Positions 5,591 through 62,444 of a stretch of DNA of 64,000 nucleotides are shown here, in pieces. Position 1 is the first letter of the stretch. Each line of letters starts with the position of its first letter. Below the pieces are notes generated by a model. That model searched no databases. It was not told the DNA's origin and saw only the letters and a list, made by a program, of their open reading frames with translations. Made by a program: the position numbers and the translations under genes. The DNA comes from Escherichia coli (GTDB lineage: Bacteria > Pseudomonadota > Gammaproteobacteria > Enterobacterales > Enterobacteriaceae), in NCBI RefSeq assembly GCF_046105845.1, contig NZ_CP151004.1; one strand, given 5' to 3'.

Positions 5591-5668
5591 GGTATTGTGC
5601 AAAACAGATCATTCACCAATGGTCCCCCTTCGTTTACACTAGCCACAATTGAATATGGGTAAATGACG

Positions 5669-6442
5669 ATGAATTCATTCGAGCGAAGGAATAAGATCAT
5701 CCAATTAGTGAATGAACAGGGAACCGTGCTTGTTCAGGATCTGGCGGGAGTATTTGCTGCCTCGGAAGCGACAATCCGTGCCGATTTGCGCTTTCTTGAA
5801 CAAAAAGGCGTGGTTACGCGCTTTCATGGCGGTGCGGCGAAAATAATGTCCGGTAATAGTGAAACCGAGACCCAGGAAGTCGGGTTTAAAGAGCGATTTC
5901 AGCTCGCCAGTGCGCCAAAAAACAGAATAGCGCAGGCGGCAGTCAAAATGATCCACGAAGGGATGACCGTTATTCTCGACAGCGGAAGTACGACAATGCT
6001 TATCGCCGAAGGTTTAATGACCGCCAAAAATATCACGGTGATTACCAACAGTCTCCCGGCGGCGTTTGCCCTTTCCGAAAATAAAGACATTACTCTGGTC
6101 GTCTGTGGTGGGACCGTCCGCCATAAAACACGCTCGATGCATGGTTCCATTGCCGAGCGTTCATTGCAGGATATTAATGCCGATTTAATGTTTGTGGGTG
6201 CTGATGGTATTGATGCGGTTAATGGTATTACGACCTTTAATGAAGGCTATTCGATTAGCGGGGCGATGGTCACAGCCGCAAATAAAGTGATTGCCGTTCT
6301 CGATTCATCGAAATTTAATCGTCGCGGTTTTAATCAGGTACTGCCAATCGAAAAAATCGACATTATTATTACCGACGATGCTGTGTCAGAGGTGGATAAA
6401 CTGGCATTGCAGAAGACACGGGTGAAATTAATTACGGTGTAG
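5669..6442 (+). CDS. gatR: DeoR-family transcriptional repressor of the gat operon (apparently intact)
   Basis: ORF 5663..6442 (259 aa); N-terminal HTH, DeoR-type C-terminal domain. Start set at 5669 (MNSFERR...), with 5663 as alternative. Uninterrupted reading frame. Confidence 0.88.
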   Translation: MNSFERRNKIIQLVNEQGTVLVQDLAGVFAASEATIRADLRFLEQKGVVTRFHGGAAKIMSGNSETETQEVGFKERFQLASAPKNRIAQAAVKMIHEGMTVILDSGSTTMLIAEGLMTAKNITVITNSLPAAFALSENKDITLVVCGGTVRHKTRSMHGSIAERSLQDINADLMFVGADGIDAVNGITTFNEGYSISGAMVTAANKVIAVLDSSKFNRRGFNQVLPIEKIDIIITDDAVSEVDKLALQKTRVKLITV

Positions 6443-6523: not shown

Positions 6524-7423
6524 TTAACGCAACAATGGGCAATCTGGTGGTAATCGACAACGCAACGCCGCCGGAAGTATTTCAATATGAAAGTTTTGTC
6601 CGCTCAACGGTTCGCCATCAAGATTAAAAGTGATTTCGTGTGGGGCTTGTATATCAAACCACGACGAAGCGCCTTCGATAATATTCGGGTTATCTTCGTC
6701 AGATTTTAATGTTGATACGAGAGCCGGAAGAATTTCATCGCCGGTAAAAATGCGCAGTTGCAGCAAGCCATCGTTAATTAACGCGTTCGGGCACAATTGC
6801 TGACCGCCACCGGCCTGACGCCCGTTACCAATACCAATGACCAGGGCGTCACCTTGCCAGTGAAAGTTTTCACCGCGGATCTCACAACGGTCCGGTTGCA
6901 GAGTATCCATGCGCATTAAGCCATGAATGATGTAAGAGACGCCACCCAGCGCGGCTTTTAATTTTTCCGGCGTTTCTGTGGTAATACGCGTCCCAAATCC
7001 GCCTGTCGCCATATTAATAAAACAGGTTTGTTTGTTGACCTGCGCCATATCTATCGCAATGGCGTCACCGGCAATTGCCAGTTTCAGCGCCTTATCCAGT
7101 GCCTCAGGAATCCCTACACTGGTGGCAAAATCATTGGCGGTTCCTAATGGTAAAATTCCCAGCGCGGGTATGTCATCCCCCTCACACTGAATCAACGCCG
7201 TAGAAACTTCATTAATGGTGCCATCGCCACCACCGGCAATCACCGTTGCGACGCCCAACTTCCGGGCCTCCTCTACATATCGTGCGGCATCGCCTTTCTC
7301 CCAGGTGACCCGCACATGGATCGTCATTCCTTCCTCACGCAACAGCATAATTGCTTCGCGCAAGGGTAGATTGTCAGTACTTTTGCCATTAAGAATCAGT
7401 AAGCTGGCGGGAAAATCTGCCAT
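6524..7423 (-). CDS. yegS: Lipid kinase YegS (diacylglycerol-kinase catalytic-domain family)
   Basis: 299-aa ORF with GGDGT motif; recognised as YegS. Confidence 0.9.
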
Positions 7424-7836
7424 GATCGTATGTGCCTTTATGATTGGTCTGTAGATAGTGTAGAGCAGAAAAGAAAAGGTGGAGTCAGAACAGGATGAAA
7501 GTCTGAGGATAAAAAGTCAGTTCAAGTATGGGGGATTCAGTGGTTACCACCAGGAGCTTGCAATGGGAACCGCGAATATTAACGGTAGCCACCGATAAAT
7601 TTCAAAAAAGAGCATATGCCTAATATTCAACCAAACAGTGGCATCTTAAATATACTATTCCAAATATATTAAAGCCCCATGGAGTTACTTGGAAAGGGCC
7701 TTCATGTCTGTAATTCCTACTTATGTAGGAAATGTTGTACAGAACATTTATTATAATCCTATTCAAATATAATAATCAGCCATTATTATATTTAAACACT
7801 AGAGAGTGTCGTTGGTATTTAATGGGGGAAGGTGAG

Positions 7837-8154
7837 ATGAAAAAGATAGCTGCTATATCATTAATTAGTATTTTTATTATGTCTGGTTGTGCTGTGCATA
7901 ATGATGAGACAAGTATCGGTAAATTTGGTCTTGCATATAAAAGTAATATTCAGCGTAAACTCGATAACCAATACTACACCGAAGCCGAAGCTTCTTTAGC
8001 CAGGGGCAGAATATCTGGTGCAGAAAATATAGTAAAAAATGATGCAGCCCATTTCTGTGTTACTCAGGGCAAAAAAATGCAGATAGTTGACCTGAAGACA
8101 GAAGGTGCAGGATTACATGGCGTCGCTCGTCTGACATTCAAATGTGGAGAGTGA
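7837..8154 (+). CDS. yegR: Small predicted lipoprotein YegR (105 aa)
   Basis: ORF track gives 7732..8154, but the in-frame ATG at 7837 is preceded by an RBS (gggggaaggtgag) and starts a lipoprotein signal peptide MKKIAAISLISIFIMSGC (lipobox MSGC). Confidence 0.8.
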   Translation: MKKIAAISLISIFIMSGCAVHNDETSIGKFGLAYKSNIQRKLDNQYYTEAEASLARGRISGAENIVKNDAAHFCVTQGKKMQIVDLKTEGAGLHGVARLTFKCGE

Positions 8155-8312
8155 GAATATTTTTTGGTAAGCGTCAAACATGCGCGTTCTGGTTGTGCTT
8201 AGCCGGAACCAGTGCGAGCACGATGCCGTTACGTGAAAGGCATCGTGCTATGAAGGGAGATTCTATCGATGTGGTCAATGGAAGACGGTGACCAGGGATA
8301 GGGCTTATGCAT

Positions 8313-8399
8313 AAAAAATAAGCCCGTGTAAGGGAGATTACACAGGCTAAGGAGGTGGTTCCTGGTACAGCTAGCATTTTATGGGTTATGTTTTTCAGC
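8313..8399 (-). ncRNA. cyaR: CyaR (RyeE) Hfq-dependent small RNA
   Basis: Minus-strand sequence GCTGAAAAACATAACCCATAAAATGCTAGCTGTACCAGGAACCACCTCCTTAGCCTGTGTAATCTCCCTTACACGGGCTTATTTTTT matches my recollection of CyaR, including the terminator hairpin (CCCTTACACGGGC) plus U-tract; located downstream of yegQ as in K-12. Confidence 0.85.
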
Positions 8400-8433
8400 G
8401 AAACGGATGATAACCTTAATAAATGCAGCTGTA

Positions 8434-8449
8434 TGTGATCGGTTTCTAA
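8434..8449. promoter_or_regulatory. Candidate CRP site (TGTGA-N6-TCTAA) centred about 42 bp upstream of the CyaR 5' end
   Basis: Seen in sequence: TGTGATCGGTTTCTAA; CyaR is known to be cAMP-CRP activated. The right half-site is imperfect. Confidence 0.45.
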
Positions 8450-8483
8450 GAATTTTCCATCCGGGAAAAATAATCGAAATTAA

Positions 8484-9845
8484 TCACTTACCGTGGGGGT
8501 TACGCGTGGTTTCCCCGGAGAAATTACGCATCAGCAGCGCGTAATTTAGCTCAAGATCCTGCGGCACCGGGATCCACACAGTATAACCATCGCCCGGTGC
8601 GACCGGCATTGCTTCGCCTTTGGCGTTTTCCATCTGCTCAAGGGTAAAGTTAATGTTGCCATGCGGCGTCATCAGCTCAAGGCTGTCGCCAACGGAGAAT
8701 TTATTTTTCACCGCTACCGCCGCGAGGTCGCCCTTGCGCTCACCGGTAAACTCACCAACAAACTGCTGGCGGTCAGAAACTGAATAACCGTATTCGTAGT
8801 TCTGATAATCATCGTGAGTATGACGACGCAGGAAACCTTCGGTATAGCCACGATGCGCCAGACCTTCCAGAGTTTCCAGCAGGCTGGTATCGAACGGTTT
8901 GCCCGCAGCGGCGTCATCGATAGCTTTACGATAAACCTGCGCGGTGCGTGCGCAATAGTAGAAAGATTTGGTACGGCCTTCGATTTTCAGCGAATGCACG
9001 CCCATTTTGGTCAGGCGTTCAACGTGGGCGATGGCACGCAGATCTTTCGAGTTCATGATGTAAGTGCCGTGCTCATCTTCAAACGCGGTCATATACTCGC
9101 CCGGACGCTGGGCTTCTTCGATCATAAACACTTTGTCGGTCGGCGCGCCGATACCCAGCGTCGGCTCAACATTTTGCACCGGAATCGGCTCGTACTTATG
9201 TACGATGTTGCCAACATCATCTTCTTTCCCTTCCTGGACGTTGTACTCCCAGCGGCAGGCGTTGGTGCAGGTGCCCTGGTTCGGGTCGCGCTTGTTGATA
9301 TAGCCAGAGAGCAGGCAGCGACCGGAGTAGGCCATGCACAGCGCGCCGTGAACGAAGATTTCGATCTCCATATCTGGCACCTGATTGCGGATCTCTTCAA
9401 TCTCTTCCAGCGACAGCTCGCGAGAGAGGATCACGCGGGTCAGGCCCATTTGCTGCCAGAATTTCACCGTCGCCCAGTTCACGGCGTTAGCCTGTACCGA
9501 GAGATGGATTGGCATTTCAGGGAAGTGCTCACGCACCAGCATAATCAGCCCTGGATCAGACATAATCAGCGCATCCGGCCCCATTTCCACCACCGGTTTC
9601 AGGTCACGGATAAAGGTTTTCAGCTTGGCGTTGTGCGGTGCAATGTTGACCACGACATAAAACTTTTTCCCCAGCGCATGGGCTTCATTAATGCCGAGCT
9701 GAAGATTTTCGTGGTTGAATTCGTTGTTGCGCACACGCAGGGAGTAACGCGGCTGGCCCGCATAAACAGCATCTGCGCCATAAGCGAAAGCGTAACGCAT
9801 ATTTTTCAGCGTTCCCGCCGGGGAAAGGAGTTCCGGTTTAAACAT
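8484..9845 (-). CDS. yegQ: Peptidase U32-family protein (YegQ/TrhP-type, implicated in tRNA U34 hydroxylation)
   Basis: 453-aa ORF; recognised as YegQ by sequence and position. Confidence 0.88.
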   Translation of the reverse strand: MFKPELLSPAGTLKNMRYAFAYGADAVYAGQPRYSLRVRNNEFNHENLQLGINEAHALGKKFYVVVNIAPHNAKLKTFIRDLKPVVEMGPDALIMSDPGLIMLVREHFPEMPIHLSVQANAVNWATVKFWQQMGLTRVILSRELSLEEIEEIRNQVPDMEIEIFVHGALCMAYSGRCLLSGYINKRDPNQGTCTNACRWEYNVQEGKEDDVGNIVHKYEPIPVQNVEPTLGIGAPTDKVFMIEEAQRPGEYMTAFEDEHGTYIMNSKDLRAIAHVERLTKMGVHSLKIEGRTKSFYYCARTAQVYRKAIDDAAAGKPFDTSLLETLEGLAHRGYTEGFLRRHTHDDYQNYEYGYSVSDRQQFVGEFTGERKGDLAAVAVKNKFSVGDSLELMTPHGNINFTLEQMENAKGEAMPVAPGDGYTVWIPVPQDLELNYALLMRNFSGETTRNPHGK

Positions 9846-21719: not shown

Positions 21720-21859
21720 CGGGAAAGCCCCTCCCGAGGAAGGGGCCATAAATAAGGAAAGGGTCATGATGAAGCTACTCATCATCGTGGTGCTCTTAGT
21801 CATTAGCTGGCCAGCTTACTAAGACTACCAGGGCGGGGGAAACCCCGCTCTACCCTCAC
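21720..21859 (-). ncRNA. Sib-family antisense sRNA (antitoxin) copy 1, approximate boundaries
   Basis: Minus-strand promoter: -35 TTGACA (rc of 21888-21893), 17-bp spacer, -10 TACTTT (rc of 21865-21870). Minus-strand terminator hairpin (rc of 21727-21746) plus U-rich tract. Fully overlaps the ibs ORF in antisense. Confidence 0.6.
21766..21822 (+). CDS. Ibs-family type I toxin peptide, copy 1 (MMKLLIIVVLLVISWPAY)
   Basis: 18-codon ORF with strong SD (aaggaaaggg) 6 nt upstream; hydrophobic single-TM peptide characteristic of Ibs toxins. The ibsA/ibsB/extra-copy assignment is uncertain. Confidence 0.8.
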   Translation: MMKLLIIVVLLVISWPAY

Positions 21860-22047
21860 TCCTGAAAGTATGCCTTCACGATAAGATTGTCAATCTGCAG
21901 GCTTTGCAGTCTGCGATCCTGCCAGCAAATATTCTTTGCGAGACGTTACGCAATAATCACACTGGAAACTATTTTATCCGCAAGTCAGCGATAGACTGCA
22001 TTCAGGGCGAAAGGAGGTAAGCCGACGATTTCAGCGGGACGCTGAAA

Positions 22048-22187
22048 CGGGAAAGCCCCTCCCGAGGAAGGGGCCTTAAATAAGGAAAGGGTCATGATGA
22101 AGATACTCATCATCGTGGTGCTCTTAGTGATTAGCTACCCAGCATACTAAGACTACCAGGGCGGGGGAAACCCCGCTCTACCCTCAC
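22048..22187 (-). ncRNA. Sib-family antisense sRNA (antitoxin) copy 2, approximate boundaries
   Basis: Same promoter (TTGACA-17-TAATTT) and terminator architecture as copy 1, shifted by one repeat unit. Confidence 0.55.
22094..22150 (+). CDS. Ibs-family type I toxin peptide, copy 2 (MMKILIIVVLLVISYPAY)
   Basis: Same architecture as copy 1 in the second repeat unit. Confidence 0.8.
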   Translation: MMKILIIVVLLVISYPAY

Positions 22188-22376
22188 TCCTGAAATTATG
22201 CCTTCACGATAAGATTGTCAATCCGCAGGCTTTGCAGTCTGCGATCCTGCCAGCAAATATTCTTTGCGAGTCGTTACGCAATAATCACAGAGGAAACTAT
22301 TTTATTCACGCGTTAGCGATAGACTGCATTCAGGGCGAAAGGAGGTAAGCCGACGATTTCAGCGGGACGCTGAAAC

Positions 22377-22520
22377 GGGAAACCCTCTCCCGGAGAAGAG
22401 GGCTTTTAATAAGGAAAGGGTTATGATGAAGCACGTCATCATACTGGTGATACTCTTAGTGATTAGCTTCCAGGCTTACTAAGAACACCAGGGGGAGGGG
22501 GAAACCTCTCCCTAACCCTC
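22377..22520 (-). ncRNA. Sib-family antisense sRNA (antitoxin) copy 3, approximate boundaries
   Basis: Minus-strand TTGACA (rc of 22551-22556), 17-bp spacer, TAATTT; terminator-like hairpin near 22385-22405. Confidence 0.55.
22423..22482 (+). CDS. Ibs-family type I toxin peptide, copy 3 (MMKHVIILVILLVISFQAY)
   Basis: 19-codon ORF in the third repeat unit with SD aaggaaaggg. Confidence 0.8.
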   Translation: MMKHVIILVILLVISFQAY

Positions 22521-22702
22521 ACTCCTGAAATTATGTCACTCCGCCCTTAGTGTCAATCGACGGCTCTCCGTTCTTGCGAGGCGAATAGCAAAATTTTCTG
22601 CGCCGCCGGGCCTAATTCTGAAAGTTTCTTCGTTTGCTCTTATTTCATTATTGCAATCGGTATGATACCGGACCTCGATAATTCTCTAAGAAAGGATTTC
22701 TT

Positions 22703-38327: not shown

Positions 38328-38366
38328 CAGTGTATTGGTAGCTAAAAAGCCAGGGGCGGTAGCGTG
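38328..38366 (+). promoter_or_regulatory. JUMPStart element with ops site (GGCGGTAGCGTG at 38355-38366) in the wza 5' leader; RfaH recruitment site
   Basis: Seen in sequence: cagtgtattggtagctaaaaagccaggggcggtagcgtg. The ops core matches GGCGGTAGnnTG exactly, and the 3' end of the element is shared with the rfb JUMPStart at 62406-62444. Confidence 0.8.
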
Positions 38367-52705: not shown

Positions 52706-52806
52706 CAGTTGCATAATCAACCGGATTAATTCTTCGGTAAATAACGACAAAAACAAAATTGGCCGCTTCGGTCAGGGCCAACTATTGCCTGAAAAAGGGT
52801 AACGAT

Positions 52807-62405: not shown

Positions 62406-62444
62406 CAGTGCTCTGGTAGCTGTAAAGCCAGGGGCGGTAGCGTG
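62406..62444 (+). promoter_or_regulatory. JUMPStart element with ops site (GGCGGTAGCGTG at 62433-62444) in the rfb operon leader
   Basis: Seen in sequence: cagtgctctggtagctgtaaagccaggggcggtagcgtg; matches the JUMPStart consensus as I recall it, and the ops core is exact. Confidence 0.85.

Follow-up and report, generated by a model that had tools for sequence, protein, structure and literature searches.

Phage integration at the 3' ends of RNA genes is documented for 186 (tRNA-Ile), for Fels-2 and SopE-phi (ssrA) and for the Salmonella sdsR/ryeB locus (PMC3448106, PMC3603311, PMC3333887). The short spacer between yegR and yegQ in Escherichia coli, within which the small RNA CyaR is encoded, raises a similar question: is the 3' end of the CyaR gene a phage attachment site, does that site stand empty in the DNA analysed here and, if so, is the locus around it still in its ancestral state? 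A preliminary description of this DNA had answered the first two points affirmatively and had suggested the third. In this study we examined the locus within a 64,000-nt stretch of E. coli DNA (NZ_CP151004.1), hereafter the window, by comparison with phage P2, with other E. coli genomes and with the corresponding loci of other species.

The P2 attachment core in the CyaR gene

The spacer measures 329 bp (8155-8483), in agreement with the roughly 330 bp first described, and holds the gene for CyaR (RyeE), as identified by a full-length match to Rfam RF00112 (model positions 1-85; 100.7 bits against a gathering score of 47) whose fold has a z-score of -2.97 and beats 200 of 200 shuffles. The coordinates of this and the other features of the locus are collected in Table 1. 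yegQ lies upstream of cyaR in the same orientation, and the CyaR promoter region (8402-8483) includes a candidate CRP-like site, read by eye and centred some 41 bp upstream of the CyaR 5' end, which fits the literature on the control of CyaR transcription by cAMP-CRP (PMC3333887). On the far side of yegS, gatR (5663-6442) looks intact and encodes 259 aa; at the corresponding place the K-12 record has an incomplete DeoR/GlpR regulator.

Table 1. Features of the yegS-yegQ interval, with positions in the window.
Feature	Position	Strand	Basis or remark
yegS (lipid kinase)	6524-7423	-	ORF; tblastn synteny
Ancestral yegS-upstream DNA (original B arm)	7424-7510		90% identical to Escherichia sp. E1V33; conserved across Enterobacteriaceae
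802-bp "yegR island"	7511-8312		Inserted into the ancestral yegS-cyaR junction; core repeats at both ends
Degenerate core copy (proposed fossil attL core), AAAAAGTCAGTTCAAGTATGGGGGATT	7511-7537	+	19/27 to core
P'-proximal-like sequence	7538-7566	+	Follows the proposed fossil attL core
yegR CDS	7837-8154	+	Stop at 8154; named from matching annotated E. coli records
Hairpin with 14-bp arms	8217-8249		Inverted repeat I3, downstream of yegR
Proposed fossil P arm, homologue of the P2 Int arm-type site	8266-8297	+	TCGATGTGGTCAATG GAAGACG GTGACCAG
27-bp P2 attachment core (putative attB)	8313-8339	+	Exact identity to the attP core
CyaR (RyeE) sRNA gene	8316-8401	-	Rfam RF00112
CyaR intrinsic terminator hairpin	8321-8348		Followed by T-run
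Candidate CRP-like site, TGTGA-N6-TCTAA	8434-8449		Read by eye; within the CyaR promoter region
yegQ (= trhP) CDS	8484-9845	-	Stop end at 8484; ORF and matching annotated records

The 27-bp P2 attachment core, AAAAAATAAGCCCGTGTAAGGGAGATT, was used as a query and has a single exact match in the window, at the 3' end of the CyaR gene, and none in 100 shuffles. It is identical to the annotated attP core, or Int binding site, of phage P2 (AF063097, 24356-24382). Similarly, when the spacer was compared by BLAST with 50,697 phage records, phage P2 24355-24382 matched at 28/28, i.e. the 27-bp core and the preceding T. The proposal that the 3' end of CyaR is a phage attachment site was thus borne out by an identity of 27/27 with the attP core. 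Read on the CyaR strand, the core spans the terminator from its loop (AAUCUCCCUU) through the 3' stem arm to the U-tail. Judged by its sequence, 8313-8339 is a putative unoccupied attB of P2 and closely related phages (Peduovirus), and we take it to be the classical P2 primary site locI of E. coli C.

The tyrosine recombinase Int of P2, together with IHF, would recombine this core with an attP in which the expected order is P arm, IHF site, core, Cox sites and P' arm. The last ~24-27 nt of cyaR are present unchanged in attP, and integration would therefore rebuild an intact CyaR gene at attR. We infer this action of Int and IHF from established P2 biology and from the natural junctions described below.

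The title of a 1992 article by Barreiro and Haggard-Ljungquist (J Bacteriol 174:4086) names attachment sites of P2 and, in K-12, a P2-like remnant. In addition, ryeE (cyaR) has been recorded as a phage target (PMC3603311, citing Wassarman 2001). Given that record and, as far as its title goes, the 1992 article, an empty P2 attB at the CyaR terminator is already known and belongs to textbook-level P2 and sRNA biology. Compared with locI there is no difference in the core, which is identical to attP, occupies the position of the K-12 remnant and is used by natural P2-type prophages. As in other integrations at tRNA, tmRNA and sRNA 3' ends, the core duplicates the 3' end of a structured RNA, so that the gene is regenerated, and the site is a recurrent hot spot; unlike the tRNA-type targets, the one in CyaR is the intrinsic terminator of an Hfq-dependent sRNA and not a tRNA-like structure. 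Furthermore, whereas P2-type integrases were described by Nilsson et al. as integrating mostly "between genes" (PMC3448106), the CyaR case lies inside an sRNA gene.

Position 13 of the core (window 8325) is polymorphic among E. coli genomes (GCC[C/T]GTGT). The window carries C, the base of the P2 core, which gives a G-U wobble in the CyaR terminator, while T, found in ~541 genomes, gives a perfect terminator stem and is also the base of the outgroups E. albertii, E1V33 and Citrobacter. The polymorphism might be a footprint of past P2 occupancy, with C as a phage-imprinted allele.

Occupancy of the site in E. coli

In K-12, 641 bp of P2 DNA (96.7% identical to P2) sit exactly between the CyaR 3' end and yegR, in line with what the preliminary description had said of ogrK and yegZ, and the two flanks of this segment align with the window. 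In it, the 3' part of gene D (the yegZ pseudogene, D') is followed by ogrK with the ogr terminator, by the P arm and IHF site and finally by the core. At the left junction, the window-type flank runs up to 8330, inside the core, and is there fused to gene D. In this comparison the ogrK/D' remnant proved absent from the window, where the site is indeed empty of the 641 bp. As K-12 keeps the same left flank together with a partial core, the K-12 form derives from an empty form such as that of the window.

To place this state among E. coli at large, 5,426 complete genomes were surveyed for insertions at this position. The site is uninterrupted over 8240-8400 in 4,207 of them (77.5%), 358 have the K-12-type junction of flank, partial core and D' (a count that agrees with the difference between two genome-survey counts), and 817 have the junction of flank, core, P' and integrase (attL-int) that marks a P2-type prophage. 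The empty state is the norm and the K-12 remnant a minority, and the suggestion that this strain in particular preserves attB is not upheld, emptiness being the majority state. For annotation purposes, the strain should be able to accept P2-type prophages at the primary site and is without the K-12 remnant.

Both junctions of natural prophages at this site were found. In the record of vB_EcoM-720R8 the attL junction runs from yegR through the flank and the core into P2 P' sequence and int, and in strain elppa10 the resident prophage ends with D-ogr beside yegQ (attR). The match to 720R8 was also considered as an indication that the flank 8159-8312 is phage DNA and was rejected, the record being a prophage cut-out with the host genes gatR, yegS and yegR; the match to "Phage TP" (AY639599) was rejected likewise, as that record includes host chromosome. 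Two records in the phage collection thus include host chromosome, ON470606.1 (720R8, with gatR, yegS and yegR) and AY639599.1, in which yegQ is labelled "putative protease".

Some E. coli carry a 170-bp AT-rich insertion directly after the yegR stop (window 8159), as in the S10EC record (830-1000) and in that of 720R8 (2498-2668); one record annotates a 41-aa hypothetical protein in it. The closest of the 5,426 genomes is 97.8% identical to the window over 25 kb (1-25000), so that the lineage of the window seems not to be closely represented among them; the segment 8240-8400 is 100% identical to that of many strains.

An inserted segment between yegS and CyaR

Species-representative genomes were scanned with the CyaR pattern, in a sample that covered neither E. 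fergusonii nor the cryptic clades, and at least 120 loci were recovered. In most of the 120 loci listed, from Yersinia and Serratia to Enterobacter, Klebsiella and Kosakonia, yegS starts ~95-130 bp from the core reference point (up to ~460 bp in some Yersinia and Serratia), and in the loci listed it has the orientation of cyaR and yegQ. None of the 120 listed loci of other species contains a homologue of YegR or of the island. The sole close outgroup with the ancestral junction in the sample, Escherichia sp. E1V33, shares 88.6% identity with the window across 4.2 kb and has yegS ~100 bp from CyaR with no yegR between them; in its genome the segments corresponding to window 7106-7508 and 8312-8449 are contiguous, and the BLAST breakpoints (7515/8313) agree. 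The DNA upstream of yegS retained on the left of this junction contains a motif (...GTGTAGAGCAG...CAGAACAGGATGAAAG...) seen in many genera.

Since these outgroups have yegS ~100 bp from cyaR, E. coli carries an 802-bp insertion at 7511-8312, and yegS is the ancestral immediate neighbour of cyaR. In Salmonella, STM2137 and not yegS follows cyaR (PMC2515195). The inserted segment has a GC content of 39.5% (51.8% for the window) and its right end is the exact left edge of the P2 core. It is present in essentially all E. coli, the ancestral junction occurring in 0 of the 5,426 genomes.

Of the idea that the window preserves an ancestral attB, therefore, one half stands, i.e. the derivation of the K-12 form from the empty form, and the other does not: the arrangement of the locus is not ancestral, its left flank having been inserted. 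Nor is 8155-8312 simply unoccupied spacer, as had been assumed, because it is part of an insertion with a degenerate core repeat and P2-arm-like ends, which makes the spacer to the left of the core best read as an old att scar.

The left end of the insertion is the degenerate core copy AAAAAGTCAGTTCAAGTATGGGGGATT, located exactly where the homology to E1V33 breaks. With 19 of 27 positions it is the second-best core-like 27-mer in the 64-kb window on both strands (the next best has 17), and a repeat finder returned the same pair as its top direct-repeat family (D1, 7509-7537 and 8311-8339, 21/29, spacing 802). Together with the bases that follow, the segment 7509-7566 matches the P2 core and P' side at 41/58 with one gap; the local score of core and P' is 29, against a null maximum of 23 in 12,678 segments, and the P' part alone is weaker (empirical p ~0.013). 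At the offset of the P' arm Int site in P2 (+115) nothing convincing follows the degenerate core, the nearest candidate by our own reading being AGTGGCAT at +126, with 5/8.

The right end is more distinctive. There, TCGATGTGGTCAATG GAAGACG GTGACCAG corresponds to TCGATGTGGTCAATG TGTGGAC GTGACCAG in P2, with 15/15 and then 8/8 identities, and BLAST aligns 8266-8295 with P2 24293-24322, annotated "Int P arm", at 27/31. The local score of 38 compares with a null maximum of 26 (mean 13.8, sd 2.3) among 12,732 other segments of 100 nt taken from both strands of the window. The match includes the arm-type repeat, for which the consensus tgTGGaCa has been reported in P2-type integrases (PMC3448106), and its side of the core and its orientation are those expected of a P arm, at a distance from the core 16 bp shorter than in P2. 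No IHF site accompanies the P-arm-like sequence in an alignment of the region with the attR arms of P2, K-12, Citrobacter and Buttiauxella. The hairpin downstream of yegR has the position of the P2 ogr terminator and is non-homologous to it, without a T-run, and intrinsic-terminator prediction did not report it. The right 10 nt of the core recur exactly at 8253-8262 (AAGGGAGATT; repeat D6), maybe by chance, 3 bp before the P-arm-like sequence; K-12 reads AAGGAGGATT at this place.

The anatomy expected of a fossil integration is therefore found in its main parts, i.e. absence from outgroups with breakpoints at the core (7508/7511 and 8312), repeats at both ends, and arms in order, of which the P arm is strong and the P'-proximal sequence moderate.

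Origin of the island

Our analyses favour a reading, which we hold to be quite probable, in which 8313-8339 is an unoccupied P2 attB and 7511-8312 a decayed P2-family remnant, so that the present attB is the attR of the fossil. Att anatomy and comparative genomics are the whole basis of the fossil part of this reading. An earlier P2-family element would have integrated at the same core in an ancestor of E. coli and subsequently decayed, leaving a fossil attL next to yegS, with the 19/27 core copy and P'-like bases, and a fossil attR, with the P-arm-like Int site and the intact core. The core would have stayed intact because it is at the same time the CyaR terminator. An "empty" attachment site can, in such a case, itself be the scar of earlier integrations.

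The proposed fossil shares with the K-12 remnant its site and the retained attR end, in the order P arm, core and cyaR. The K-12 remnant is an internally deleted prophage whose left junction lies within the attL core, whereas the older fossil would be far more decayed, with no phage gene, the IHF site lost and 19/27 of the attL core. It would also be fixed in E. coli, whereas the K-12-type remnant occurs in 358 of the 5,426 genomes.

The decay proposed for E. coli has an intermediate stage in the type strain of E. albertii, NBRC 107761, where a 3.37-kb P2-type element separates yegS from cyaR (positions -3386 to +10, counted from the core). Its attL consists of a 25/27 core copy, 87 bp upstream of yegS, and, after it, of sequence that shares 84% identity with the P' side of P2; its attR, beside cyaR, consists of P arm, IHF site and core. 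BLAST aligns the E. albertii attL with window 7297-7566, through the degenerate core and the P'-like bases (7511-7566). The two insertions have the same insertion point, the E. albertii element being younger, larger and without yegR.

P2-type attR arms abut cyaR not only in E. albertii, but also in Citrobacter youngae, C. amalonaticus, two Citrobacter sp., an Enterobacter sp., a Buttiauxella MAG and another E. coli. In Pseudescherichia vulneris, Lelliottia nimipressuralis and a Pluralibacter MAG, inserts of 0.5-1.2 kb separate yegS from cyaR, and at each of them 11-18 nt of the core remain as a partial copy, ~80-93 bp away from the start of yegS, which suggests independent site-specific insertions into the CyaR terminator in these three genera. 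The E. albertii element, the attR arms and the small inserts together make the CyaR terminator a recurrent integration point across the family. Such a hot spot at the CyaR 3' end in several genera of Enterobacteriaceae is relevant to the way in which sRNA loci seed genomic islands.

The contents of the E. coli island are less telling than its ends. yegR, its only intact gene, encodes a predicted lipoprotein of 105 aa (lipobox ...IMSGC). YegR matches carry the precomputed family PF27694 (labelled YegR), and those with names are nearly all from E. coli or Shigella. No recognisable phage gene or fragment was found inside the island: tblastn with P2 Int found no Int fragment, and DNA similarity to P2 does not extend beyond the arms. 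Among the phage matches there is no genuine homologue of YegR, the only ones being contamination by host flank, from which the match of PHROG 21109 to YegR probably derives as well. yegR may be either phage cargo or a later arrival; in either case the reading as an island offers an origin for an orphan lipoprotein gene restricted to E. coli. One of the 5,426 genomes, that of E. coli FDAARGOS_1077, lacks yegR because 306 bp have been deleted between perfect direct repeats of 12 bp (TCTGGTTGTGCT; 7882-7893 and 8188-8199 in the window) and has a correspondingly shorter island.

The alternative that survives best concerns this gene. All that an old P2-type prophage left might be its att scars, of ~56 bp to the left and ~50-75 bp to the right. 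The AT-rich segment with yegR would then have come separately, either inserted, as something unrelated, into the prophage while this decayed, or brought by a different integrative element or satellite that used the same core, and yegR would never have been phage cargo. Such a composite origin differs from the preferred reading only in the route by which yegR entered, and we regard it as possible, if distinctly the less probable account. It agrees with the lack of P2 gene fragments beside yegR and with the independent small inserts at the same core in other genera. It also agrees with the places where homologues of YegR are found elsewhere, which are IS-rich or ordinary chromosomal contexts and never P2-like prophages; indeed, the three contexts of divergent homologues that were examined are unrelated ones, none of them P2-like. 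Around yegR there is neither a second set of repeats nor IS ends, as a separate insertion might have left, and nothing decisive speaks against it.

An extended form of the preferred reading, in which locI is the attR of a P2-family element that is fixed in all E. coli and delivered yegR, and in which the arm site may still bind P2 Int, is in our view improbable, if worth stating for its consequences. Should 8266-8297 still bind P2 Int, this could be one reason why P2 so strongly prefers the location to secondary ones. Alternatively, it could affect excision, since in a modern lysogen attL would then have arm-type sites to either side and resemble a crippled attP.

Much less credible still is a pristine attB, i.e. 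a flank of host DNA that was never occupied, with its similarities to the P2 arm and core due to chance. The site is uninterrupted in 78% of E. coli and no phage genes lie between yegS and cyaR, as such a history would predict. Nevertheless, outgroups lack the whole 802-bp segment, with breakpoints that coincide with the core and its degenerate copy, the scores of both ends exceed their null maxima (38 against 26 for the P arm, 29 against 23 for core and P'), and both arm matches are ordered and oriented as attL and attR; the breakpoints of E1V33 and these two scores already largely refute it.

The least probable history of all, to which we give hardly any credence, runs in the opposite direction, P2 having captured its P arm from the yegR-cyaR spacer of E. 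coli, as the original, by aberrant excision. Aberrant excision is an established phage process and the homology between spacer and P arm exists, yet the geometry is wrong, because in a lysogen the yegR-side flank abuts P' and not P. Moreover, tgTGGaCa is a functional Int motif found also in the P' arm and across P2-type phages (PMC3448106), the same P arm and IHF site occur in Citrobacter and Buttiauxella prophages whose hosts have no E. coli flank, and it is the host copy that is degenerate, its second repeat reading GGAAGACG and its IHF site being absent.

Other RNA elements were noted elsewhere in the window. Three tandem Sib RNA genes lie on the minus strand at 21751-22556 (RF00113, 140-150 bits each); at the corresponding locus K-12 has two (sibA and sibB). 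Two JUMPstart elements (38328-38366 and 62406-62444) and an algC RNA motif (52753-52802) presumably belong to the colanic-acid and O-antigen clusters.
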